DNA of 24,020 nucleotides, taken from assembly GCA_964506865.1 (NCBI GenBank), contig CAZDNU010000264.1, positions 1 through 24,020 of the forward strand. Reading direction: 5' to 3'. The stretch is from an uncultured Fusobacteriales bacterium. GTDB lineage: Bacteria; Fusobacteriota; Fusobacteriia; Fusobacteriales; JAAYPW01. The notes beneath the pieces were generated by a model. The model saw only the letters and a list, made by a program, of their open reading frames with translations. It searched no databases and was not told the DNA's origin. Positions 1 to 15,058 of this stretch are shown piece by piece (position 1 is the stretch's first letter; each line of letters begins with the position of its first letter). A program made the position numbers and the translations under genes.

Positions 1-3000
1 ATTATCTTTATCAGCTTTTACCAAAGTAACATAATGTTCTAAGTCAAACATTCCACTATCACCATTAGGATGACCTAGAGGTAATCCACTGATAATATCA
101 TTTGTAATTACACCACTTAAACCTTCATGCGTTAATACATCATAGTCTAAAAGATCAAATTCATGTATATCACCATTACTGTCTACATTGTCAGATAGTT
201 TAGCTCTTAAGATTAATGCAGCAATTTCTTCTGCATCTTTATCTCCATTAGCTGCATCTTCAAGAATATCCAGAAAATCTTTCTTAGATATTGAGTCTAT
301 ATTTTTATCGATTTTACTCTCTACTTGATTATCGATCTTATTCCTGCTATCTTCAGAGAGTTCTACAACAGCAGAATATTTGTATTCTTCCTCTAAGTTG
401 TATATGGTAGAAGTCTTAATAGCTGTATATGACTCTGTTTCTTTATCATATTTGATTATATCAGCATAATGATCTGTAAGATGATCTGTCAGATTTTTTT
501 TATATTTATCAAGAGCTCCTGCCTCACCATTTTGTTTTGCAGCATAATAGGCTCTTAATCCTGTATTCTGTGCATTAGTAATAGCATTAATCTGAGAAGT
601 AAGATCACTAATAATCTTTTTCTGTATTTTCTCTTTCTTAGTGTTATAATCTATACCTTGATAATCACTGGTAACTTCACTAAACATCTCTTCGTAATTA
701 TCACGTTGATAGATTAAATCCTGCTTAAGTGCTTCCATTTGAGTACTTAGTTCATCAACTGATAAATTTTTCCCTTTATTCAATAAGTTCATAACCAGTG
801 CAGGAGCCATTTTATCTGTTTGAATAGTGTTTGTATCACCAATCTTTACTTCGTGATAAGAGTACAGCTCTATAGAATCACGGATACCTTCATCATATTC
901 TAATTTTTCTCCTTCTTTAGATATAACCGTAAATTCTTCATATACTACTGTTTTAGTACCAAGTTCTGGATGCTCTTCTGAAATATTTTCTGTTTCTGTT
1001 CTAGTTGTAGCGAAGACAGAATCTCCTTCCATTGAAACCATTACCTTCATATTATTATCAGAAGCATCTAGGTCTGTAGTATTAAATACAGCTCCTTTAA
1101 TATCTATAAAATTACCAACTTTTTCATGTTCAAGACTGATTTGTAATACTTTACCATTTTCATCTTCACCAATTATTCCGGTATTTATATCTTCTTCGAA
1201 AGTACCCATCTCAACAATATTATCTAACATCTTTTCTTTGAAGTATTGAGTCTCTTCATAAGTTAAAGCTTCTCCTGTAACTATTTTTTTAGCAATAGCC
1301 ACTTCTTTACTACCTTCATTTTCCCATGATTTTACAAATTCATCTTTTACAAAACGTATTTGATCCCAGTCATTGATTAATGCATCTACATTTATTATAC
1401 CTCCTGCAGTAACATTGTTATATGCTCGTAGATCTTTTACTACATTATTTATTGTTGCTTGGTCTACATTACCTTGAGTATATATATTTTTCCAATTTCC
1501 AATCTCTTTTAATATATCAGCAACCTTATCTTCATCACTTAATGTTTTTACTTTCTTATGTACATTAAGCCCTTCGGATACTAATTGAGTAATATATTTT
1601 ACATCTGTAAAATCTGTTCTCACATGATGACCATCTTTTGGATTATAGTTATTTTGCCATAGATTAAATCCGTTATATGACTCTGCTTGATATTGTGATG
1701 TAGCATCAGAAACAAATGCTGTTCCTGACGCATTATGCTCATGCCTGCTAATATCATACACATATCCTACTTTTGCTCCAACATTAAAGTCAAGATATTC
1801 TGCATTTTCCTTATACTTTGCATCGGTTTTATCTGTATTAGCTTTAAACTTATACTGCGTTGCAAAGTCCATTCCAACAGCATTATAATAATCATCTGCC
1901 TTATCACCATATACATAATTTACTCCTGCAGTATTTATATATTTATCATTCTCATTTACTAACCAATTAACATCAGCTGCAACTTCTCGTCCACCATAAG
2001 TAACTGAAGCATTATTTGGCATCCAAGATGCATTACTGGAATTTGTTTCATATGTTAGTGATATACTAGAAGTTTCTCTTATGTTGGTCCAAGAGAATCC
2101 TTCCGATCTATCTATCATAAAATTAATATTTCCACCAAATCCCACAGTAGGGTCATATCCTGCTTCCAGACCAACCCCTCCTTTAGAAGTATCAAATACT
2201 AAACTACCGTACATAGAACTATTTCCAAAATCTTTTGAAAGTCTTAATTCACCTGCTGAATCAATTTTAAGTTTCATACCTTTATACTGTATTCCTCCTG
2301 CAACTGTTAGATCTCCACTGTCTAAGTTGTAGTTAAAACCTCCACCAACGTATTTGCTTACATTTGCAGAAGCTCCAACTGACTGTATAAACTGTCCTTC
2401 GGTACTTAATCCAATACTAAGATTCATAGTTTCATTTGCAAAAGGGAGAGGTATATTAAATTGTGCATTACCCATATCGATTAACTCTACAGTGGAAATA
2501 GCTGCATCTATTGCAGCAAACTTTAGTGTTGCCAGGAAAACATCTGCTGCTCCGGGAACTACAAACATAGAAGCAATAGATACTGCCGCATGAAGAGCTC
2601 CATACATTTTTTTCTTTTTTTCCAGTTTATTTTTTACTCTTACCAGATGATTAGACAGATTATCTAGTCTTAATTGTAAACCTTCATTTCTGCTATATTC
2701 CAACTCTTCTAATAAGTTGTCATATTCTGTTTGTAATCTATTTACTTCATTATTAATAAGGTCCACACTATTTTTTTCATCAAACATAAGAGCAAGACTT
2801 TTTAGATATAATCTGTAGTCTGCTTCTGTCATATCGTCAGCTGTAAGTTCATAGTTATTACTATTATTGATTGTATACAAGTAATTTTGTATCCAATCAT
2901 TATCAATAGGGAATACAGTCTTATTAATATTATCTATCTGTATGTTCTGATTGCTCTTGACTATACTGAAAAGACATACTATCCCTGATTCTGTACTAGT

Positions 3001-6000
3001 TGTTTTACCTGATCCTGTATTTATGGTTATAGCTGTTTCTGTACTACCCTCTATTAATCCTGTCATTACTTCACTTTGACCGTATTGGAAACTAGCTGTT
3101 TGTTTTGCTGGTTCAAATGAAGCTGATATACTATCTATAACAAAGAATCTACCTCTTACTCTTACTGGTGCCGGACGAATTGTCTTTTTATATGTAATAT
3201 CATACCAAAGAGAATAGTTAGCACCAGGAGGAGAGCCATATTGCTGACCGTCTGAACTATTAAAATCTTCTTCTCCTCTAATTAATACTGTACCTCCGGG
3301 TACATCTATCTCTATAGTTTTTCCTAGTGGATAAGGAAGTTGTGAAAGCTCTATAGGTCGGTAATTCTCTATTACTAGGTCTTTCCCATAAGCTGCGTTA
3401 TCGTTTTCCACTATTTTTTTCAAGAATATAGGGACATCTTCACCTTTTTTATTCTTTACAGTTCTGTAAATAGGGAATACTTTGGATATTTCATCTTTAG
3501 CATCTTGATCTCTATTATCTTTACTATTGTAATTATAAATTGCAACCTCATCATCGCCTACTTTTTCTACATCAATAATAGAACTACCGTCATAACTTAT
3601 CTTTGGTATAGGTATGGCATCATTATGGAATGTAAGGGTAGTCATACCAAAGTTTACTTCTGAATTATATAGATCTTGATACTCTGTAGCAAACTCTGTT
3701 GTAGACTTTTCATCAAAATCATATAGTGAATTCATTGTACTGTTAAATTCAGCTATATATGTAGGTGCTGTTTTTGCATCATAAAATTGTTCTTGGTTAT
3801 AGTCAGCAGTACCCTCTATTTTAAATAGATTTTCTTTGCTTCCTGTATTTCTATTTAAAGTAAGCTCGATCTCTTTTACCTTGTATGTTACCAGGGCATT
3901 TTCTATACCACTACCACAGAAATTCTCGTCACTATTACTATCTGCATCTATATCCAGTTGTTTCAAGAAATAGTTTTTAGCATAAGTATTAGCATTAACT
4001 ATATCATCTCGTGATGGGTTTAATATACCTGATCTTTTAGCCTTATCACTTGTGTATGATATATTTGGACTAGTCTCTTTTATATCCAGCTTTACTACTT
4101 GATGTATTGTCTCTACACCATTTACACTCGTCTTATATACTAACTTAGCATTATCTACAAAGTTTTCTATTCTATTGTAGTCAATGGCTCCACCTGTAAT
4201 ATCATCTGCTTCCAATTCCATTAATTCCACAAGATGAAACTTACTGTATCTTGCAGGAATATGTACTCTATTTAAGATTATATCTTTTGTAATAGATGTT
4301 TCTATATCCCAATTTGTATATACCGCAGCACTTGAAGTATATGTTCCGTTTTTAGTAGGTATATTTTGTAGCTCTATAATATACTTAGCATTTTCATCAT
4401 CTACATATGGAAAATATGACTCTGTATCAAGTGTAAGTGCTACATAGTTAAATCCAATACGTTTTAGTTCAAAACTATCTATCTTCTCCAGTGTTTTATT
4501 TACTATAGCAGGGAAATCGTCTCTTTGTACTACTACAAATCCATTCCTTGCATAAACTCCTTCACTAATAGAGTAATCAAACTCCTTTCTGGTATACAAG
4601 CTTAAATCAAATTTAGCATTATTACCATCTATTCTATCTAATTTCAAATCTCTGTTATAGTAATAACCATCTTGTACTGCCAAAGCATTATTCAATGCTT
4701 CAAAGGCTGTAGCTCCAGTAGGACTATCATATATATACTTGATATTTTCATCTGTAATATTAAGTTTTAATTTTAGATTTGAATATATTCCAGCAGGGTT
4801 ATCTTCTTTATTATAAGTAGATATATTTACTTTAGCATTAAAGTTAGACATAGCTTCTATAGGTCCTTGTTCCAAAACTATCTCTTCATCTACTATTCCT
4901 AATGCTCCTTCTGGTTGTAGTACAAATGAATTTACCTCTTTTTTCAGCTTAAAGAATATATCTTGTATCTCTCCTGCTACAGTTTGATATATTACCGCAC
5001 CCATAGTTGTAGGCTCAGAATTTAAATATTGGAAATTAAAATCCTCTTTTACAGTAATCTGTATACCTGATAGAGTATCAGTAAGCTTAATATTTGGTTC
5101 TATAGCAATGTATATATTTTTTTCTCCGCCTCCATCTTCACCATAGATAGAGTTAATATAGTTTCTATTCTCTTCCTCTTTAAATAAAGGGATCTCTACA
5201 AAGGTAGCCATAGGGCAGGCACTAAAATTTCTTCTTGAATAATTACTGATTAATCTACCAACAGATCCTTCAAATAGTACGCTGTCATCTGTATATATAG
5301 TTATCTTATCTTCATTATCATATCTGTCATAATTAACATATTGATCAAAGAAAGCTTGTGTAGAGCTTTGCGTCTCTAAGAAGTTTCCTTCTGATATACC
5401 GCTAAGTAAGTCTCTCGAATTAAAAGCTATTCTCAAGAATTGATTAGTTTCTTTATCCATATTAATTGGATATGTAATTATATTGCTTCCATTATTAGTA
5501 GTGTTATTTTTCATTTCATATTGTGAGAAACTAAGTGTATATCTTGAATTATTGTCTGCAGATAGTGATCTTCTTATAGAATTCACATTTACTATGATTT
5601 GAGGAAAGTTTTCTATCCCGTATACATTTTCATTATCTATATATTTAGTCATAGTATCTTGTATTATTTCCATTTCATCTTTACTTACTGCATCATCTAT
5701 AGATACAATCTCACTTTCGTCATCCACCAGTTCTACATAGTAATCTCTACTACTATATCCTGATATCTCGTCTGTTTCACATGCCAGGGAATAGTTTAAT
5801 ACTATTGTAGAATCATCTTTTAGACTAGGGTATTTTTCTAATGTAGTTTTTAACTTTGCTATCTCTATTACTATATAATAGTATCCATCTTCATCCGGAT
5901 ATATCTTATATAGGGTAGGGCTTCCATTAAAATCAATAAAGTATTCTCGTATACCTTGAGTAACAATACCGCCTTGTTCACCGTAAAATATAGAAAAATC

Positions 6001-9000
6001 AGATATTAATACGTTCTTTAAAGCTTTGTCATTATATTTATCTACTTTTATTTTGATATATTGTGTTTCATCTGTTTTTACAAGCTTAATTTTTTCATTG
6101 TCTATATCTCCACTTGGACTAGGCAAGATAATATCTGATGCAAAGTCAGTGGCAATCTGTTTATATATTCCAAAGATACGAATAGGGGAGTCAAAGTGAC
6201 TACTTACAGCACTTTCTACTTCCATATAATTATCCTGGAAATATTTACTTGTATTATTAAATTGATATTTTTGATTTATATCATTTTGTATTGCTTCTAT
6301 TATATTACTATCTGATACTTCATGGAACTGGTTTGTCACACCATCCATATTACCTGTATCTGTTTTCATACTGATAAAGTCTATATCTGTAACTTCTCCA
6401 TTTGTAAATTGGAACGGCATAATCTTTGTCTTTCCATCATTGGAGAAAGTATATGTTGGTGCAGGATTATCTTCATCAATATATGTTGTTCCCGGTAATA
6501 CACCATAAAATCCATCACTATCTTTAAACATAGGTATCGATAGGGGAATAATCTTATCAAGCAACTTAAATGGTTTTATTATTTCACTTCCATCTTCTTG
6601 TATCTGTTTGGCTATACCATAATATATTATTTGACTACCATAATCAAATGCACTATTTATCTCTACATCATCACATGGCAAGTTATTTAAGAATACTAAT
6701 TCTTTAAATTGTGTCTCTATAGCTTGGTAATTTTCTGTAGCTTCATCTTCAAAATTATGTTTTAGATTGAGTAGAGTGATTTTTGAATAGAAAGCTTTTT
6801 CAGGATCACCTTTCACTATTTCTGATACATTATTGTATGCTTCATTAGACTGGTTTGCATAGAATTTTTCTACTTCCAAAGCTTCTTGTACACTTGATAG
6901 GGGATTTTGATTCTCTATCTTATCAATATTTTCTATTTCAGATGCAATTGCTTTGGCTATTCTTGCAAAATTAATAGCTGTTTCTGCTGTAAGGGCATTT
7001 TGTCTTGCTGTTTCCAATCTATCTTTATAGTCTTGTAGTAGTTTATAGTAATTAGTTTGTGTATATAGATTAAAGTTAGCTTCTCTTGTCTCTTTATTTG
7101 GGTTTACAAAGTTTACAGAATACCCATATTTTGAAATATATTTCTTAGAAGAGTGAGCTATTATATCTACTAAGTTGATCATAGAAGTATTATTTTCATA
7201 AGCTCCTTCAGTTGCCTTCATTGATATCACTTTTGCAATATCTTCCATAATATTTTCTTTAGCTTTCTCTAAATTTATTTGAGGGTTCTCTTCTATGTAT
7301 ATCTCTTCCAGTACTCCTTCGCTATTTTTTTTATAAAAATAGAATTCAATCTCAAATTGAGGTATTATACCAACAGTGCTTTCTGCTTCCGGGGTCAGAC
7401 TTTTAAAGTTTACCTCATTACATTGATATACCACATATTCTTCTAGTGAATTACCCATACTATCTGTAAGAGGGATTTTACCTTTAATATATGTTTTGGC
7501 ATCATCCAGCAATACTATTCTTGTTTCTGTAAACTCTTTGCTGACTATATTGCTATCATCATGTATTAGGGTAGGTTTTGAATTTACTAACACAGATGGT
7601 ATCAATGCATTATTTAATGTTTCTTCCGAATCATCTATTAAGTCTAATACTTGTCGAGTATTTATATCTATTCCTATTATTTTTTTATAGAATGTATACC
7701 TATCACCAAAGTAGGGAATAGTATCTTGACCTACTGTATATTGTGATAAGTCATTCATAACAAATAGGGTATTTGGTAACTTAGTAAGACCTTTTTCTAT
7801 TGTGTTTAATGCTGTATACTCATCTGTTTGATTATCTCTTGCATGTAAACTTACTTTATTAAAGTCAAATATCTTATATCCTCTTAATGGTCCTGCTTTT
7901 TCGGTAATATAGAATTTCTTACACTCTTCCGGTATTATATCAAAACCACGATTGGCATCTGCTTTTTTCCAATGAGTATTTAGTTTTTCTGCATTATTAA
8001 AGATGTTAACAGATATACCATCAAATTTTGTAGAAGATAAGTTTTCTAATTTGTCAATATTTTCTTTTTTTGATACAGAGGGCATAATTGTATAAAATAT
8101 TTCTTCAGGGGTTTTTTCTATATATTCATCCATTGGCATTGTGTATACAAGGGCGCTATCAGTAGTAGCTGTACTTTTATCACTATATTCACTTCGTAAG
8201 CTTAAATTTAATAATGGCTCTCCAGGACCTATAGTTTGTTTTTCTAAATGTGAGTAAAATCTAATTTCAGCATTATCTTGAGTGTACCATATCCAATTAT
8301 CACCAAAGTATTCATCATATATTGATTGATTGCTATGTACTAAATCTTTAGATGAATCTATATTATTATTAAATTCTTTTTCCAGTATTTTTTGAAAGTC
8401 TTCATAATTAGCACTATTCACTTTGTTTAAATGGAAATTAGTTCTAATGCTAAAATCTATATCATATTTTTTACCTGGTATCATAGCACCTATTTTACTT
8501 ACTTTTAGATAATCGGCTAAAATATTTGGTAGGTAACATTCATTTAAAGTAGTATTTCTAATATCTATCTCCACGTCATAATCAAATATTAGATCATATG
8601 TTTTATTTACAACGTTTCGAAATTTATTTTTATATTCAAAGACAACATCATTGGCTCCATTTTTACTAAATGCTGTTCTTTCTATATTACTGTATGAGAT
8701 TCGATCCCATTGGTTTTTATCTTCTTGTGTTATAGTAGGCGGTTCAAATAGCTTTGTAGCCATATCACTTTGCTCTATAGTAGTAATATATAACGTATCA
8801 CTACTATATTCATCGGTACTATTCAAGGCATAGATACCGTAAGTATATGGATTATTGTAGCCAATAGGGGCTACAAATATATTTTGATTTGAAACAATTT
8901 CTTCTGTTTCTTCCAGTACATCATCCAAAGTTTTTTCTTCTTCGTCAGATATATTTCCTTGATCTTTTTCTACATTTATTGAAGGATTAGAACAAATTTT

Positions 9001-11088
9001 TGTTATGCTTTGAGCAAATTTTAATAAGTCCTTTGTTTTTCCTACTACTTCACCTAATAATTCACCATCTATTACTTCTATATATTTATTTAATAGCCTT
9101 TTTACTATAGGCTCTGCTTGTAAATTATATTGCTCTCTTATCTCATTAGAGTTATATCCAAAAGCAGCAGCTGAACCTGGTATTGTCTTGTTAATGTAAG
9201 AATTTAAATTGTTTGGCAATTTTGCTAATACGTGACTCTTTAAATTTATCCCTAACATACTAGGATTATTATAAATTAAATCTTCTGGCTCTTCTATATC
9301 TAGCGAATTTGGATCTTTTGAGTTGTATTGCTGTATTAAGGATAAAGCATTTACAAATTCATTATCTGTATTTGGTATATACACGTTTACTTCCAACTCT
9401 TCTATATTTGTATAAAAGAATTCTCTATTCATTTTTTGTAAATTAATTGTTTTATATATCGGTGCTATTCCATCTTCCTCTTTTATAAAAGTAAAAGTTG
9501 TATTGCCAGGACGAATAATATTATCTTGATTTTTATCCAAAACTAATCGATAACCTTCTAATTTAGCAGGGTTTCCGTTAATCAAAAAATCTGTTATATA
9601 TATTGTCTTATTTTCCGTCCCTTTGCCTACTACATCAAATACTACATTTTCAGGTATTCCTATAAAGTCTAAATTTACTATTATAAGTGGATAGTTTTTA
9701 AATCTTGTAAGATTATACATATTTTGTTTTGTTTCATATAAAAGGGTTTTGCTATTTTCAACAGGATAATTAATTTTTGATTTATTCATGCTTTCATTAT
9801 ATTCTATTAAAGTAGGAAAGATAAAGCATCTATTATCATCTAAACTTGAATTGAATTTACCATTAATTTTTTTGTCTGTATTTTTCAAATATACATCTGT
9901 ATTTCTAGTTTCTAATAAATCTTGTCTATGATTCATTATCAAGCTTTTTTCAGCCATATCAATTTCACGGCCATTTTGATGAAGGGCTACATCTCCTGTA
10001 CTTATAGTTAATATCTTTGAACCAGGATCATAACTAGCCTTATATCCATGATAATAACTTTTTCTTAAGACATAGATATCAGATATAATATTATCAAATA
10101 TATCTTCCATATCATCTATTAGTTTTTTTGTATCACCATAATTTTTTAGTGCTACATCTTCAATATATAGCTTCGTTACTTCATCCTGAGCAGACGAGAT
10201 ATATTGTCCTGTTACTTCAGATACTGAGAATTTTTCTGCTTTAAATTCATATGGAACATCTAATTCTTTAAAATATTCTCCCAAAAACTTAGTAGCATTA
10301 TGATTTACAAAGTTTATATCAAATATAAAATCTGTATAGTTTATTGTATTTGGATAATATGGAGTTCCATTAGGAGAATGCAGTAGAGAACTATAATCAT
10401 ATGCAGATACAGAATTTTGAGTATATTGTACCTCTAATTTTACATTTTCAGGGTTAAAAGTCCTTATTTCACTACTTTTTACAGGATTTTCTATATTACC
10501 TTTTATGTATAGCAAATTATCTTTTGCTTCCAACTCTTTTACAAATAGTAAAGTTTGTTTTTGTTCTCCTTGATGGTTTTTTATCTCGAAACTTTTCATT
10601 TTTGCATGTTCCAATGCTAAAGCAAGATTAAAAACCATATGTGTTGTATCTTGTAATTGGGGTAGGGCAAGCGAATCTATCCCCAAAGGCAGTTTAGCAA
10701 AGTTATTTTGAGAATATTTATTTAGCCCTATACTGTCATACGGACTTAAATATCTTGTATAGTATTCTCCCATAGTATCTGATGCATATTTTTCATCTCT
10801 ATCTTCATGTAATATTAGACTGGTACTTTCTTTTATATCAAACTCTAATTTCTTTTTCAAAAAGTAATCAAAGAATACCTTATATTCATTTTGACCTGTC
10901 CAATCATCTATTACCAAGTTATGAAATCTATCAGGGTTATTTACATCATTTCCTACAGCAGAAATATATTGATTTATATAGTAATCACTGCCCGGATTGT
11001 CCATATAGTCGCTTGGATTAAGTGAATCACTTGCCAAATTTATTACGCTTATTATTGTTAATAGGATCAAGATTAATAGTTTTTTCAT
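1..11088 (-). CDS. Giant secreted protein, at least 3,696 aa, C-terminus runs off the left edge; unknown function, polymorphic-toxin/adhesin-like architecture
   Basis: Manual translation shows no stop codon from ATG 11088 to position 1. N-terminus MKKLLILILLTIISVINLA-SDSL is a Sec signal peptide. SD AAGGAG at 11102-11097 lies 8 nt upstream, and the start overlaps the upstream stop (ATGA). The translation is protein-like throughout. Absent from the supplied ORF track. Confidence 0.95.
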   Translation of the reverse strand, partial: MKKLLILILLTIISVINLASDSLNPSDYMDNPGSDYYINQYISAVGNDVNNPDRFHNLVIDDWTGQNEYKVFFDYFLKKKLEFDIKESTSLILHEDRDEKYASDTMGEYYTRYLSPYDSIGLNKYSQNNFAKLPLGIDSLALPQLQDTTHMVFNLALALEHAKMKSFEIKNHQGEQKQTLLFVKELEAKDNLLYIKGNIENPVKSSEIRTFNPENVKLEVQYTQNSVSAYDYSSLLHSPNGTPYYPNTINYTDFIFDINFVNHNATKFLGEYFKELDVPYEFKAEKFSVSEVTGQYISSAQDEVTKLYIEDVALKNYGDTKKLIDDMEDIFDNIISDIYVLRKSYYHGYKASYDPGSKILTISTGDVALHQNGREIDMAEKSLIMNHRQDLLETRNTDVYLKNTDKKINGKFNSSLDDNRCFIFPTLIEYNESMNKSKINYPVENSKTLLYETKQNMYNLTRFKNYPLIIVNLDFIGIPENVVFDVVGKGTENKTIYITDFLINGNPAKLEGYRLVLDKNQDNIIRPGNTTFTFIKEEDGIAPIYKTINLQKMNREFFYTNIEELEVNVYIPNTDNEFVNALSLIQQYNSKDPNSLDIEEPEDLIYNNPSMLGINLKSHVLAKLPNNLNSYINKTIPGSAAAFGYNSNEIREQYNLQAEPIVKRLLNKYIEVIDGELLGEVVGKTKDLLKFAQSITKICSNPSINVEKDQGNISDEEEKTLDDVLEETEEIVSNQNIFVAPIGYNNPYTYGIYALNSTDEYSSDTLYITTIEQSDMATKLFEPPTITQEDKNQWDRISYSNIERTAFSKNGANDVVFEYKNKFRNVVNKTYDLIFDYDVEIDIRNTTLNECYLPNILADYLKVSKIGAMIPGKKYDIDFSIRTNFHLNKVNSANYEDFQKILEKEFNNNIDSSKDLVHSNQSIYDEYFGDNWIWYTQDNAEIRFYSHLEKQTIGPGEPLLNLSLRSEYSDKSTATTDSALVYTMPMDEYIEKTPEEIFYTIMPSVSKKENIDKLENLSSTKFDGISVNIFNNAEKLNTHWKKADANRGFDIIPEECKKFYITEKAGPLRGYKIFDFNKVSLHARDNQTDEYTALNTIEKGLTKLPNTLFVMNDLSQYTVGQDTIPYFGDRYTFYKKIIGIDINTRQVLDLIDDSEETLNNALIPSVLVNSKPTLIHDDSNIVSKEFTETRIVLLDDAKTYIKGKIPLTDSMGNSLEEYVVYQCNEVNFKSLTPEAESTVGIIPQFEIEFYFYKKNSEGVLEEIYIEENPQINLEKAKENIMEDIAKVISMKATEGAYENNTSMINLVDIIAHSSKKYISKYGYSVNFVNPNKETREANFNLYTQTNYYKLLQDYKDRLETARQNALTAETAINFARIAKAIASEIENIDKIENQNPLSSVQEALEVEKFYANQSNEAYNNVSEIVKGDPEKAFYSKITLLNLKHNFEDEATENYQAIETQFKELVFLNNLPCDDVEINSAFDYGSQIIYYGIAKQIQEDGSEIIKPFKLLDKIIPLSIPMFKDSDGFYGVLPGTTYIDEDNPAPTYTFSNDGKTKIMPFQFTNGEVTDIDFISMKTDTGNMDGVTNQFHEVSDSNIIEAIQNDINQKYQFNNTSKYFQDNYMEVESAVSSHFDSPIRIFGIYKQIATDFASDIILPSPSGDIDNEKIKLVKTDETQYIKIKVDKYNDKALKNVLISDFSIFYGEQGGIVTQGIREYFIDFNGSPTLYKIYPDEDGYYYIVIEIAKLKTTLEKYPSLKDDSTIVLNYSLACETDEISGYSSRDYYVELVDDESEIVSIDDAVSKDEMEIIQDTMTKYIDNENVYGIENFPQIIVNVNSIRRSLSADNNSRYTLSFSQYEMKNNTTNNGSNIITYPINMDKETNQFLRIAFNSRDLLSGISEGNFLETQSSTQAFFDQYVNYDRYDNEDKITIYTDDSVLFEGSVGRLISNYSRRNFSACPMATFVEIPLFKEEENRNYINSIYGEDGGGEKNIYIAIEPNIKLTDTLSGIQITVKEDFNFQYLNSEPTTMGAVIYQTVAGEIQDIFFKLKKEVNSFVLQPEGALGIVDEEIVLEQGPIEAMSNFNAKVNISTYNKEDNPAGIYSNLKLKLNITDENIKYIYDSPTGATAFEALNNALAVQDGYYYNRDLKLDRIDGNNAKFDLSLYTRKEFDYSISEGVYARNGFVVVQRDDFPAIVNKTLEKIDSFELKRIGFNYVALTLDTESYFPYVDDENAKYIIELQNIPTKNGTYTSSAAVYTNWDIETSITKDIILNRVHIPARYSKFHLVELMELEADDITGGAIDYNRIENFVDNAKLVYKTSVNGVETIHQVVKLDIKETSPNISYTSDKAKRSGILNPSRDDIVNANTYAKNYFLKQLDIDADSNSDENFCGSGIENALVTYKVKEIELTLNRNTGSKENLFKIEGTADYNQEQFYDAKTAPTYIAEFNSTMNSLYDFDEKSTTEFATEYQDLYNSEVNFGMTTLTFHNDAIPIPKISYDGSSIIDVEKVGDDEVAIYNYNSKDNRDQDAKDEISKVFPIYRTVKNKKGEDVPIFLKKIVENDNAAYGKDLVIENYRPIELSQLPYPLGKTIEIDVPGGTVLIRGEEDFNSSDGQQYGSPPGANYSLWYDITYKKTIRPAPVRVRGRFFVIDSISASFEPAKQTASFQYGQSEVMTGLIEGSTETAITINTGSGKTTSTESGIVCLFSIVKSNQNIQIDNINKTVFPIDNDWIQNYLYTINNSNNYELTADDMTEADYRLYLKSLALMFDEKNSVDLINNEVNRLQTEYDNLLEELEYSRNEGLQLRLDNLSNHLVRVKNKLEKKKKMYGALHAAVSIASMFVVPGAADVFLATLKFAAIDAAISTVELIDMGNAQFNIPLPFANETMNLSIGLSTEGQFIQSVGASANVSKYVGGGFNYNLDSGDLTVAGGIQYKGMKLKIDSAGELRLSKDFGNSSMYGSLVFDTSKGGVGLEAGYDPTVGFGGNINFMIDRSEGFSWTNIRETSSISLTYETNSSNASWMPNNASVTYGGREVAADVNWLVNENDKYINTAGVNYVYGDKADDYYNAVGMDFATQYKFKANTDKTDAKYKENAEYLDFNVGAKVGYVYDISRHEHNASGTAFVSDATSQYQAESYNGFNLWQNNYNPKDGHHVRTDFTDVKYITQLVSEGLNVHKKVKTLSDEDKVADILKEIGNWKNIYTQGNVDQATINNVVKDLRAYNNVTAGGIINVDALINDWDQIRFVKDEFVKSWENEGSKEVAIAKKIVTGEALTYEETQYFKEKMLDNIVEMGTFEEDINTGIIGEDENGKVLQISLEHEKVGNFIDIKGAVFNTTDLDASDNNMKVMVSMEGDSVFATTRTETENISEEHPELGTKTVVYEEFTVISKEGEKLEYDEGIRDSIELYSYHEVKIGDTNTIQTDKMAPALVMNLLNKGKNLSVDELSTQMEALKQDLIYQRDNYEEMFSEVTSDYQGIDYNTKKEKIQKKIISDLTSQINAITNAQNTGLRAYYAAKQNGEAGALDKYKKNLTDHLTDHYADIIKYDKETESYTAIKTSTIYNLEEEYKYSAVVELSEDSRNKIDNQVESKIDKNIDSISKKDFLDILEDAANGDKDAEEIAALILRAKLSDNVDSNGDIHEFDLLDYDVLTHEGLSGVITNDIISGLPLGHPNGDSGMFDLEHYVTLVKADKDN

Positions 11089-11273
11089 TTACTAATCTCC
11101 TTTCCTATTGTAAAGTTAGCAGATACACTTTCATTATATCCAAAACTGCAACTATATCCTGTAGAAGATGAGTATACTGCATTATAGTTTTTAAAATAAT
11201 TTGTAAGTTTTTTCATAATTGAATTATTTTTTTGAACTCTTTTTCTATATTTTCTTAAATTATTTTTATTCAT
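11085..11273 (-). CDS. 62-aa basic small protein of unknown function
   Basis: SD AGGAG (11289-11285) overlaps the upstream gene's TAG, 11 nt from the ATG. Its TGA overlaps the giant gene's ATG, so it is coupled on both sides. Confidence 0.7.
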   Translation of the reverse strand: MNKNNLRKYRKRVQKNNSIMKKLTNYFKNYNAVYSSSTGYSCSFGYNESVSANFTIGKEISK

Positions 11274-11287
11274 TTATTTATCAACTC

Positions 11288-12970
11288 CTACATCAATTCT
11301 GCTAGTCTTTTTTCAAAGTCTGTAAGGTTATTTAAACCACTTAGATCATTTCTAAAAGTGAAATTACCTCTTACTATTTTCATATGTTTTAAGAAGTAGG
11401 TGTTATCATACTCTCTTAGATAATCCACAGCAACAGGGAATACCCTCTCAAAATCATCTTTTGACTTTGCACAAGTCAAACTAAGTCCAATAAAAGCAGC
11501 TCCATATCTTGCATTCAAATCTTTATCTGATTTTACAAGAGGGGATAGGCTTATACAATAATTTACATTTTCTAGTAATAAAGCCATCTCTACATCCATC
11601 TGTTTATACTTTGATATCTCTTTTAAGATTATCTCTGCTTCACTCATTGATATTCGAGCCAGTGTAAGCATATATAGCTCTTTTAAGTAGGTATTATTTA
11701 TACTGGCTGTTTTTACAATAAGGTCACGTTGCCTCTTTATATTGAATTTATATCCGGCTTTATAATTCTTATATAGGCTTCCTACACCTTCAAATGCTAT
11801 CATGTCCATAGCCATTTTCGAAGACTTTATTAGACGGCCATAAACTTCTAAATATTCTATTATCTCATCGGGTGCATCTAACTTTGATTTTATCTCTTCA
11901 ATACTTACATTTTTACTACTCTTTGTTTTTCCATACTCAAGAGCTTTACTTGTTATCTCATTTAAGCTGTTTGCTAATTTACTTGAGAAAGCAGGGTAGG
12001 GAAGTAGTTTATATATTTTCAAATCAATTTGATTATCTTTTAATGATGCTTCTTTTAAAATTCTTGCATTTTTTTCTGTATTAGAGAAATTTGCAATTAA
12101 GCTGTACTTAAAAGTTAAAGGATTATCATTTGAGATATACTTTACAGCTTCTTTTATATCACCTTTATTTAGAATTGATAAGTATTTTGAGATTTTATCT
12201 AACTCTTTCTCTTTTGATAATTTTTCCAGTAAAATATTTGTACTGTCAGGTGTAAATAGGGTATCTATTGCAAAGTTTACATCTGTGTAAAATTCATCCC
12301 TATTTTTAAACTTTATTTGTTCTTTTAAAATATGTATAAATTTAGATACTTCATATTTACTACTTATTTTGTAGTCTTGACTACCTACACTGTTTCTAAC
12401 CTTATAGAAGCTATTTTCAGGGTAAGCAGTCAAGATTAAGAGGGGTTTGTATGTTAAGATATTTTCACTCAAGGCTACATTTGAAAACATAAAAGTTATG
12501 TAAGCTTTGTTTTCAACTTGAGAAAAATAATCATAAACAGTTCTTTCAATTTCTTCATTTCTTTCTGTTTTTAACGATAAATAGACTATCTTTTGAATAA
12601 ATAAAAATTCTTCTAAGTGAGAGAGATTATCTCGAAATTTTTTAAATGTTTTATAAAGTTTATTTGGATTGTTTTCATTAGAATGTTTAAAAAAATGTTT
12701 TAGATTTTCATTAGAAATTTGATATTCGTTGTCGGACAATTCAAAGATATTGTTTGGATTAATTCCTATTACGCCTGGTATTACACGAAAATATTCTCGC
12801 ACAGCATCTTTCTTTACACTATAAAATGGATAGGATATGTCTGGTTTTAATACCAGCTGTGATTCTTTAACTTTTAGTATAGTCTCTTTTCGAGGTATTA
12901 GCACGTTATACTCCTTGGAATAGCTTAATAAAGTTAATATTACAAAAAATAAGCAAAAAAAGTTTTTCAT
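11288..12970 (-). CDS. Secreted hypothetical protein, 560 aa, C-terminal half predicted largely alpha-helical
   Basis: Long ORF with SD AGGAGG 5 nt upstream (12981-12976) and a signal peptide MKNFFCLFFVILTLLSYS-KEY. No family motif recognised. Confidence 0.88.
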   Translation of the reverse strand: MKNFFCLFFVILTLLSYSKEYNVLIPRKETILKVKESQLVLKPDISYPFYSVKKDAVREYFRVIPGVIGINPNNIFELSDNEYQISNENLKHFFKHSNENNPNKLYKTFKKFRDNLSHLEEFLFIQKIVYLSLKTERNEEIERTVYDYFSQVENKAYITFMFSNVALSENILTYKPLLILTAYPENSFYKVRNSVGSQDYKISSKYEVSKFIHILKEQIKFKNRDEFYTDVNFAIDTLFTPDSTNILLEKLSKEKELDKISKYLSILNKGDIKEAVKYISNDNPLTFKYSLIANFSNTEKNARILKEASLKDNQIDLKIYKLLPYPAFSSKLANSLNEITSKALEYGKTKSSKNVSIEEIKSKLDAPDEIIEYLEVYGRLIKSSKMAMDMIAFEGVGSLYKNYKAGYKFNIKRQRDLIVKTASINNTYLKELYMLTLARISMSEAEIILKEISKYKQMDVEMALLLENVNYCISLSPLVKSDKDLNARYGAAFIGLSLTCAKSKDDFERVFPVAVDYLREYDNTYFLKHMKIVRGNFTFRNDLSGLNNLTDFEKRLAELM

Positions 12971-13089
12971 AATTTCCTCCTTGTATATAATATTTTATTT
13001 ATGGTTTCAATTAGTTTTTAATTATAAAAAAGTTTGAAAAGTTTAGATTTTTTATGAATTTATAGAAATTTTGAAATATCGCAGAAAAA

Positions 13090-13118
13090 ATTATATCACA
13101 ATCAGTTGTAATTTTCAA
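13090..13118 (-). promoter_or_regulatory. sigma70-type promoter for the 560aa/62aa/giant operon
   Basis: Minus strand TTGAAA (13118-13113), 17-nt spacer, TATAAT (13095-13090), with an extended -10 TG (TGaTATAAT). Confidence 0.7.
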
Positions 13119-13146
13119 TCTTTTTTTCTATAGCGTTTTTTTTTCA

Positions 13147-13175
13147 TTTACATTCTTCCAAAAATATGCTAAACT
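13147..13175 (+). promoter_or_regulatory. sigma70-type promoter for the peptidase/lipoprotein operon
   Basis: TTTACA (13147-13152), 17-nt spacer, TAAACT (13170-13175), with extended -10 TGc; about 55 nt upstream of ATG 13231. Confidence 0.6.
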
Positions 13176-13230
13176 ATTTAGGCAAATTTCAACTATTATT
13201 TATATCAAATTCTAAATCCGGAGTCGAATA

Positions 13231-13875
13231 ATGAATATCTTTCTTTTTAGCATACTTGCTATAATTCTTTTATTTTTATCAATTAAATACATTAATAATA
13301 CTAAAAATATCGAAATGAATTTATCAAAAAAGGTTCAATGGTATGAACTAGTAATACTGTTTTTTATTATCATAATTTTTTTCCTAACACAGGTTGCTAT
13401 AAATTCTTCTATAAATTTTCAAAATAAAGGTTATATTTTATTTTTGTTTCTATTATTTATAAGTTTTATAGATTTAAAACGAAAATATATTCCAGATATT
13501 TTTTCAATTTTACTTATAATTTTTGGAGTATCATATTCAATAATATCAAATCACTTAGAAATAGATCTCAAAAATTCTCTTTTTCTTGCTTTTCCTTCTT
13601 TAATTTTATATTTTTATGGAGATAAACTATTTAAAACTGAGTGCATTGGAGCAGGAGATATAAAATTGATTTTGGGATTAGGATTTTTTTTTACCGATAT
13701 CACAGTTTATGATGTATATATATATTATGCCTTGGCATACCTTATCGCCTTTCCAATTGCCATTTATTTACTTTTCAATCCCAAAAGTAAAAAGTTCATA
13801 CCTTTTGCTCCCTTTTTGTCAATTTCTGCTATCTATTTATACCATTTAAAAGGAGGTTTTTTATATGAAAATTAA
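13231..13875 (+). CDS. Prepilin peptidase, family A24 (GxGD aspartic membrane peptidase), lacking the N-terminal Zn/methyltransferase domain
   Basis: Multiple TM helices. Catalytic motifs FIDLKRKYIPD and GAGDIKL, C-terminal IPFAPFL. No CxxC pairs in the N-terminus. SD GGAG. Confidence 0.88.
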   Translation: MNIFLFSILAIILLFLSIKYINNTKNIEMNLSKKVQWYELVILFFIIIIFFLTQVAINSSINFQNKGYILFLFLLFISFIDLKRKYIPDIFSILLIIFGVSYSIISNHLEIDLKNSLFLAFPSLILYFYGDKLFKTECIGAGDIKLILGLGFFFTDITVYDVYIYYALAYLIAFPIAIYLLFNPKSKKFIPFAPFLSISAIYLYHLKGGFLYEN

Positions 13876-15058
13876 AATATTCATATTTGTTTTCTTACTT
13901 TTTATTTGTGCTTGTAAGAATAATTCAAAATCAAAAGCAAAACTTGTCCCATTACAGTCGACAGAAAAGCAAAATAATATGATTTATATAAAAAAAGGGA
14001 GTTTTGTAAATACACCATTAGAGATTCACCTAGAAGGCTTTTTTATCAGTTCACATATGATAAGCTACAACGAATATTACAAACTCTCCACAAAAAGTGT
14101 TTCATATGATCTTGATAAATCATTTGAAGCAATTAATAATCTCTCCTACTATGATATTGCTCAATTTTGCAACCAGAAAAGCCTAATTGAAAATTTAAGC
14201 CCCTATTACTACTTTAAAGGAAATAAAATATATGAAAATGTCAATAATAACGGATATCGTCTTCCAATAAAAGAAGAGTTTATTTATTTGTTTGATTATA
14301 ACATCAACAGTCTTTATACTACTCATATAGAAAAAAGTAAACTTTTTTTTGATACTATTCCATATTTTAATTTATCAATAAACTTGTTTCCCGATTTTCG
14401 GGGAAATGAGCTATGTAATAATGATTTGATTCAAAATCAAAAAAAATCTTATAATGGTTTTCGTATTGCAAGAAATTCAGATTATCCAAATACAAATGGA
14501 TTACGTTACACTACACGTGAAATTTATAAATTTCCTGAAACCTATGAATATTATAACGTCGATAAATATGGGATCAGTTTTCCATATCCTAAAGATTGGG
14601 GGACAAAGTATATTTATAAAAATTTAAGTATTCATTTTAGCCAAACTGATTTGGAAAAATACGAAAAAGGGATTCCTACTAGAGGAAATGGAGTTGTCTT
14701 CTATAAAGAAATTTATAATACAGATAGATTATATAGTCAAAATTTTTTTATTTATAATAAAGTCAATTTAAAATTGAAAAAATACAATCGAAAAACAAAA
14801 AAATATGAAATAAAAGATAATTTAAGTATCTTGGACTCTTTTTCTAAAAAATTTAATTTAAATTCAGATAATTATAAAATCCTACGGAAAAATGATGCTG
14901 TTTATATCTTCTCTAAAAATACAAATTTATATAAGGTAAATTTCTATATTATAAAAAACAATATTGTTTTTCTCCTTTCATTTGAAACAATTAATTCAAA
15001 AACTAAGATTCCTTTAGAGCTAATTGATTTTGTTTTTAACAATATAGATTTTTATTGA
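13865..15058 (+). CDS. Lipoprotein with a degenerate FGE-sulfatase/SUMF1-like domain plus a C-terminal PsbP/DcrB-like domain
   Basis: Lipobox LFICA-C after a basic and hydrophobic leader. FGE-like motifs MIYIKKGSF, LSYYDIAQFCN..LSPYY, NGYRLP.KEE, GFRIAR. YGISFPYPKDW is typical of PsbP-like folds. SD AAGGAGG; overlaps the upstream gene by 11 bp. Confidence 0.72.
   Translation: MKIKIFIFVFLLFICACKNNSKSKAKLVPLQSTEKQNNMIYIKKGSFVNTPLEIHLEGFFISSHMISYNEYYKLSTKSVSYDLDKSFEAINNLSYYDIAQFCNQKSLIENLSPYYYFKGNKIYENVNNNGYRLPIKEEFIYLFDYNINSLYTTHIEKSKLFFDTIPYFNLSINLFPDFRGNELCNNDLIQNQKKSYNGFRIARNSDYPNTNGLRYTTREIYKFPETYEYYNVDKYGISFPYPKDWGTKYIYKNLSIHFSQTDLEKYEKGIPTRGNGVVFYKEIYNTDRLYSQNFFIYNKVNLKLKKYNRKTKKYEIKDNLSILDSFSKKFNLNSDNYKILRKNDAVYIFSKNTNLYKVNFYIIKNNIVFLLSFETINSKTKIPLELIDFVFNNIDFY

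Follow-up and report, generated by a model that had tools for sequence, protein, structure and literature searches.

A giant Sec-signal protein of an uncultured Fusobacteriales bacterium founds a small orphan family and may carry an internal barrel-like module

The first 11 kb of the window studied here, a stretch of 24,020 nucleotides from an uncultured Fusobacteriales bacterium (contig CAZDNU010000264.1, assembly GCA_964506865.1), appear empty of genes. The question raised by this locus is whether they encode anything and, if so, what kind of protein. On the minus strand, positions 1 to 11088 form a single open reading frame (ORF) of 3,696 codons that starts with ATG and contains 0 stops, against 157-543 stops in each of the remaining five frames over the same 11 kb; its guanine plus cytosine (GC) content at codon positions 1, 2 and 3 is 43, 30 and 18%. 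Thus, the open frame is not due to chance. On the same strand, a Shine-Dalgarno sequence, AAGGAG (11102-11097), precedes the ATG of position 11088 by 8 nt. The N-terminus, composed of MKK, a hydrophobic core and a small-residue site, is a predicted Sec-type signal peptide (residues 1 to about 20, 11029-11088, minus strand) without lipobox Cys, and an equivalent N-terminus with the same start position exists in P0002, a homologue described below. These observations bear out a preliminary description of this DNA, which had read here an uninterrupted minus-strand gene preceded by a ribosome binding site and opening with a signal peptide. Its count of 10 Cys is exact. That it saw no RTX, YD/RHS, FHA, LRR or obvious Ig tandem repeats also holds: self-BLAST at E<=10 returns the identity match alone, with no internal repeat, and Pfam gives no RTX, RHS, FHA, LRR or Ig match on tiles, even at E<=10.

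The giant gene is real, intact and chromosomal, and is under purifying selection. Its DNA is present in two runs of different studies, one aquatic and one freshwater metagenome, and Logan contigs of the independent freshwater run cover positions 551-13200 with 0-1 differences, which answers the concern about misassembly raised in the preliminary description. A sediment metagenome carries a relative that is 90-95% identical (about 92%); among the 33 differences listed for it in 4420-4996, 25 fall at the third codon position and 22 are synonymous. The gene is open at its 3′ end, and the window starts at base 1 of a contig belonging to a metagenome-assembled genome (MAG) of 530 contigs (2.22 Mb, 85.6% complete); its truncation hence comes from the assembly and not from biology. 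Judged from P0002, which is 3,971 aa long, about 278 C-terminal residues are missing, and the full protein would thus reach some 3,970 aa. In two metagenomes, the depth over the first ~550 bases exceeds that of the rest 2- to 10-fold, and several unitigs of bases 1-550 are variants with 3-8 differences and small indels. This suggests that the 3′ part of the gene has a second copy or holds a polymorphic or recombining cassette, and the contig break is probably due to these excess-depth variant bases. Neither the missing C-terminus nor a paralogue was found in the source MAG. The fragmented state of this MAG, its incompleteness and the higher-depth polymorphic region of the left 550 bases could be taken as signs of an artefact, whether chimeric assembly, pseudogene or non-coding open frame. 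But the lack of any stop, the assembly of the same sequence in the run of another study, the bias of differences towards third and mostly synonymous positions, and the collinearity of two full-length homologues with the window protein leave next to no credit to such a reading, which we consider effectively refuted.

What are the relatives of this protein? As judged by sequence comparison, it founds a new and very small orphan family in which three members were found, without counterpart among described families, papers or structures. Its detectable relatives are two among about 15 billion proteins. A word-indexed search of 5.8 billion protein clusters with the full length gave P0002 as the sole match, and pieces covering residues 1-1000 and 1000-1960 added nothing to it in the same clusters. 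P0002, 3,971 aa long, is encoded by a complete gene that ends in TAA and lies on a Logan contig of 12 kb with 25% GC. It is 39% identical to the window protein and collinear with it from residue 22 to residue 3692/3693, identity being highest at residues 1800-2400 (up to ~60%) and 2700-3100 (~47%) and lowest at residues 300-600 (~22%). When all 190 genomes of the phylum were searched in six frames with a profile, one further member appeared: P0005, a complete ORF of 3,166 aa in a MAG of about 1 Mb from a different family of the same class. Two of its blocks are collinear with the window protein. Residues 1108-1618 align with residues 1711-2246 (23% identity, E 4e-8, hhalign probability 93%), forming a core of ~540 aa, while residues 1917-2166 align with residues 2723-2994 (25% identity, E 1.5e-13), a block comprising coiled coil, helix-turn-helix and Gly/aromatic beta segment. 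P0005 scores 31 bits only and lies below the sight of a HMMER search of 1.84 billion representatives, in which the profile of residues 1960-3099 retrieved P0002 alone. Consequently, the family may exceed three members and further distant ones may exist. Scans of metagenome and viral contigs for relatives of the giant protein found none.

Along the protein (all coordinates on the minus strand), the signal peptide is followed by a non-repetitive N-terminal region, residues 21-1710 (5959-11028), 22-49% identical to P0002 and with no detectable match in P0005. Within this region, at residues ~1276-1463 (7260-6700), the preliminary description had placed a helical bundle; alpha-type amphipathicity exceeds beta-type there, a weak check that agrees with helices. 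Then comes the family core common to P0005, residues 1711-2246 (4351-5958), which is overlapped by the best conserved stretch at residues ~1800-2400. Residues 2247-2752 (2833-4350) are 35-60% identical to P0002, match no described family and are not confidently modelled, with a predicted local distance difference test score (pLDDT) below 50. They lead to an antiparallel coiled-coil hairpin at residues ~2755-2843 (2560-2826) and to a small-residue-rich helix-PGA turn-helix at residues ~2834-2873 (2470-2589). These helices directly precede a Gly/aromatic beta module of 263 residues, 2878-3140 (1669-2457), kept in all three members. The remainder, residues 3141-3696 (1-1668), is acidic, mainly helical and incomplete. 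Across the family, the signature consists of a variable N-terminal region with the conserved ~540-aa core, the coiled-coil hairpin, the helix-PGA turn-helix, a Gly/aromatic segment of 240-290 aa made of short dyad-amphipathic strands and, after this module, a charged region, helical for the most part, that ranges from 560 aa here, where it is cut short, to about 900 aa.

The preliminary description had found no family for this protein, and wider searches came to the same result. Pfam, searched with the whole protein and with tiles of 500-700 aa, gave no match even at E<=10. NCBIfam and PADLOC had no match to the giant protein, and PHROGs had a single marginal one (E 0.011, 66 aa). PDB sequences yielded nothing with the protein or with profiles of two or three sequences, and ESM Atlas gave nothing usable with the module and the core. 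The motifs HExxH, Walker A and CxxC were looked for and are absent, and no GxSxG motif is conserved. AlphaFold2 was run on residues 2740-3696 and 1700-2770 with alignments of two rows. Over residues 2740-3696, the mean pLDDT is 44 and the coiled-coil hairpin, at 66-79, is the sole confidently modelled element. Fold searches returned generic coiled-coil or helical hairpins, or noise, only; the structural neighbours of the hairpin include IpaB, colicins Ia, E2 and E9 and TcdA4, matched just as generic helical hairpins, with Z of 10-12. As for the helix-turn-helix, its Kyte-Doolittle value of 1.82 over 19 residues passes the membrane threshold in the window protein but not in P0002, and this hairpin is therefore not treated as transmembrane.

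In the three members, the beta module contains 11-13% Gly and 11-13% aromatics, and the ratio of beta to alpha amphipathic moments is 1.15-1.47. For twelve autotransporter barrels of the same order, the means are 12.5% Gly, 13.2% aromatics and a ratio of 1.48; for the BamA barrel of the host itself, the values are 13%, 12.7% and 1.25. In the rest of the window protein, Gly amounts to 4.6% and the ratio to 0.93. The most barrel-like 260-aa stretch of the whole protein begins at residue 2861, and with about 263 aa the module is as long as a 12-strand translocator. From this composition, and not from an established fold, we infer that the module may be an outer-membrane barrel. The host, a low-GC uncultured freshwater bacterium, has two membranes, as indicated by three Omp85 matches in its MAG, including a BamA-like ORF. 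The MAG also encodes one secretin and two GspE/PilB-type ATPases, so that export through a secretin is possible.

We tentatively favour, at somewhat less than an even chance, a giant envelope protein, exported by Sec, that an internal barrel-like module would fix in the outer membrane. After export, the beta segment would be inserted there by the beta-barrel assembly machinery (BAM), forming a barrel comparable in size to those of autotransporters, and would thus anchor the whole protein. On its surface, the cell would expose the long, non-repetitive N-terminal part (1,900-2,750 aa) in the role of an adhesin-like or contact module, and the 560-900 aa of charged helices that come after the barrel would remain periplasmic; the opposite orientation is also possible. 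Under this model the protein would work like a self-anchoring type V protein, outside every described type V class.

Several points weigh against this anchored arrangement. AlphaFold2 gives a pLDDT of only 20-35 over the beta module and a mean of 28.8 over residues 1700-2770, which include the core. By sequence and profile, the module does not resemble autotransporter barrels, the hhalign probability of every 330-aa tile against the alignment of the 12 same-order barrels being at most 0.4%, and it matches no outer-membrane family of Pfam at E<=10. Soluble beta sandwiches and beta helices also exhibit dyad amphipathicity and richness in Gly and aromatics. No adhesion domain was recognised in the giant protein, and we know of no type Va protein with a domain of 560-900 aa after its barrel.

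Does the protein then belong to one of the known classes of giant exported proteins? In common with type Va autotransporters, it combines a signal peptide with a host whose MAG encodes Omp85/BamA. For a membrane barrel with a pore-spanning helix, the signs are mixed: the module matches real barrels in composition and amphipathicity, but its AlphaFold2 model has a pLDDT of 20-35. The PF03797 translocator, a C-terminal barrel of 12 strands, was not recognised in it, the Pfam search of tiles at E<=10 being empty, and the module does not close the protein with a terminal aromatic residue as a classical barrel does, since it is followed by at least 556 residues here, 839 in P0002 and about 900 in P0005. 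Type Vb two-partner secretion (TPS), which pairs a TPS-domain protein with an adjacent Omp85/POTRA transporter gene, was rejected: Pfam shows no TPS or haemagglutination domain, and the 560-aa neighbour, without Pfam or NCBIfam match, is not conserved beside the relatives. Similarly, an inverse autotransporter of type Ve is not supported by any IAT_beta, Ig-like or lectin match in Pfam or by internal repeats. By the sequence evidence, the giant protein thus fails membership in every type V class. RTX/MARTX, RHS/YD and filamentous-haemagglutinin proteins were set aside for lack of tandem repeats (self-BLAST, E<=10) and of Pfam matches. Large clostridial and Tc (ABC) toxins, which have glycosyltransferase/protease or TcA shell domains and lack a Sec signal, were discarded as well, with no Pfam, PDB-sequence or motif match, a Sec signal present and a likeness to TcdA4 that concerns a generic hairpin. 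A phage or defence giant is not indicated either, the only elements being the marginal PHROG match, no PADLOC match, no relative on viral contigs and chromosomal housekeeping contexts.

Other readings of the same protein have to be weighed. It might be a soluble giant toxin or contact-dependent effector released from the cell. Its hairpins would then insert into membranes or mediate translocation, in the way of colicins, type III secretion translocators or large clostridial toxins, and its beta module would be soluble, or pore-forming in the target only. The succession of a coiled-coil hairpin and an Ala-rich hydrophobic one with the Kyte-Doolittle value given above speaks for it, as do the hairpin neighbours IpaB, colicins and TcdA4, generic though they are, the secretin and the two ATPases through which the host could export such a protein, and a prepilin peptidase gene located divergently upstream. 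Yet the hydrophobic hairpin is insufficiently hydrophobic in P0002 and loosely conserved in P0005, helical-hairpin matches lie within the noise range for helical models, none of the four motifs listed above is conserved, and no toxin, immunity or polymorphic C-terminal family was matched with Pfam or PADLOC. We consider this reading unlikely. We judge in the same way a structural envelope protein without barrel, such as an S-layer-like, sheath or matrix protein, that would leave the cell via the secretin pathway or vesicles and whose beta module would be soluble. Its signal peptide, its mosaic alpha/beta composition without repeats, the core chromosomal contexts of the family (P0005 lies beside dnaA-rnpA-yidC-mnmE) and the secretin and ATPase genes of the host are all compatible with this role. 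However, the shift in composition at the module is sharp and specific and matches real barrels, and Pfam detects no S-layer (SLH) or other envelope domain.

The barrel could also be an anchor with the opposite topology, as in an inverse autotransporter or a tether of the OmpM/SlpA type, the giant N-terminal part being periplasmic and the part after the barrel being surface-exposed or tethering the outer membrane. This arrangement shares the compositional evidence of the module with the anchored protein that we favour; moreover, the association of a coiled coil with a barrel-like segment recalls OmpM/SlpA, and the domain after the barrel recalls intimin and invasin. But no SLH, LysM, IAT_beta or Ig-like domain is found with Pfam, a periplasmic domain of 300 kDa would be unusual, and the coiled coil is an antiparallel hairpin and not a long parallel stalk. 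It appears quite improbable to us. A bolder extension of the anchored reading would see in this family an unrecognised class of self-anchoring giant outer-membrane proteins, whose internal barrel has no sequence kinship with those of type V, with a huge surface part free of repeats and a large periplasmic domain after the barrel, that replaces classical autotransporters in deep-branching lineages of the phylum devoid of them. We hold this to be rather doubtful. For the anchored protein that we favour, the distribution of autotransporters in the order is a further argument, though a weak one. Sister families of the order possess 7-18 PF03797 autotransporters per genome, in every sampled genome of two large families, and many of these proteins measure 2,000-4,300 aa, while the two genomes of the host family contain 0; PF03797 is likewise missing from two further small families of this order. 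That an autotransporter-free host family has found a different solution to the same task would fit these counts.

The comparison with the closest known systems helps to delimit what is peculiar to this family. The giant type Va autotransporters of Fusobacteriales-type bacteria, which we take to be the Fap2/RadD class, are likewise Sec-signal giants of similar length in two-membraned cells, with a Gly/aromatic amphipathic beta segment of ~265 aa preceded by helices. They share no sequence or profile similarity with the window protein, which lacks beta-helix repeats; their beta segment ends the protein, while that of the present family is internal and followed by 560-900 aa; and the host family is devoid of any PF03797 gene. 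Type Ve proteins (intimin, invasin) and OmpM/SlpA tethers also present an internal barrel-like segment, a large domain after it and an adjacent coiled coil. Unlike them, the window protein has no IAT_beta, LysM, Ig-like or SLH domain, its largest part lies before the barrel and not after, and its coiled coil is an antiparallel hairpin. Modules of colicins, type III secretion translocators and large toxins resemble it by a long helical hairpin followed by a hydrophobic helix-turn-helix, but the fold likeness is generic, the hydrophobicity is not conserved in the family, and the window protein carries a Sec signal and no toxin or catalytic domain. Giants of Omnitrophota and other uncultured bacteria are, as here, derived from metagenomes and rich in long domain-less stretches, and genes for type II secretion or pili occur close by or elsewhere in the genome. 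Those giants are reported to contain many transmembrane regions, mostly SecA-like DEAD domains and, in some cases, repeated CBM- or dockerin-like units (bioRxiv 10.1101/2023.11.21.568195). The window protein differs from them by its single signal peptide and the absence of repeats and of any recognisable domain.

Giant exported surface proteins of two-membraned bacteria are a kind already known, and the function of this one is proposed here from sequence, a surface or envelope role being the most likely. If confirmed, an internal barrel-like module with a large domain after it, without repeats or known domains, would constitute a new variant of architecture. As a rule, a giant exported protein is recognised by its repeats or by known adhesin, toxin or barrel domains. 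About 4,000 repeat-free residues with no recognisable domain and two relatives represent an unusually large unexplored protein space. Should the beta module be a new kind of anchor in the outer membrane, autotransporter-like export would gain a further architecture, and the protein could show in what way relatives of Fusobacterium-type bacteria that lack autotransporters construct their surface. If the module is not an anchor, the gene remains a well-validated target for structure determination.

Is the giant gene part of a larger system? In the window, it lies after two genes of the same strand, one for a 560-aa signal-peptide protein of no family (11288-12970) and a putative coding ORF of 62 codons (11085-11273). 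The latter is Lys/Asn-rich and its TGA overlaps the ATG of the giant gene (ATGA). The 88 nt upstream of P0002 contain no counterpart of this small ORF, and the 560-aa protein has no match in Pfam or NCBIfam and a best ESM Atlas score of 0.84, not usable. One strong promoter-like site precedes this gene group, and no terminator-like site is present between its genes. The neighbours of P0005 resemble none of those of the window gene: the order at its locus is gyrA, gyrB, dciA, dnaA, rnpA, yidC, mnmE, the giant gene and three exported proteins. P0002 looks like a lone gene between two hairpins, each less than about 85 nt away, but the 88 nt upstream and 82 nt downstream that its 12-kb contig holds are too little to show neighbours. 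Since neighbours are not conserved, they provide no evidence that the giant gene works in a dedicated multi-gene system or forms a two-partner secretion pair. The preliminary description had recommended comparing homologues and their neighbourhoods, which yielded two relatives and no shared neighbours. Its proposal that the giant protein is the likely core of an undescribed secretion, toxin or surface system is not supported here, with no conserved neighbours and no conserved toxin or enzyme motif.

Some minor observations concern these neighbourhoods. In the window, the prepilin peptidase gene is accompanied by a lipoprotein gene, also divergently upstream, and a DUF4914 gene is found among the neighbours. 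The one genome of the same bacterial family that was compared has a short contig with different neighbours. At 13865-15058, on the plus strand, a 397-aa lipoprotein-like protein without Pfam match displays the motifs GYRLP... and GFRIARN, which resemble, by eye, domains of the FGE-sulfatase/SUMF1 type. The place of P0005, beside the replication-origin gene set of a reduced genome of about 1 Mb, is unusual for a 9.5-kb gene of unassigned function. The first gene after it encodes a signal-peptide protein of 292 aa with a HELMH (HExxH-like) motif and an ATGA overlap with the stop of the giant gene. Although it has no Pfam match at E<=0.01, this protein may, from its motif and gene arrangement, be a co-translated secreted metalloprotease.

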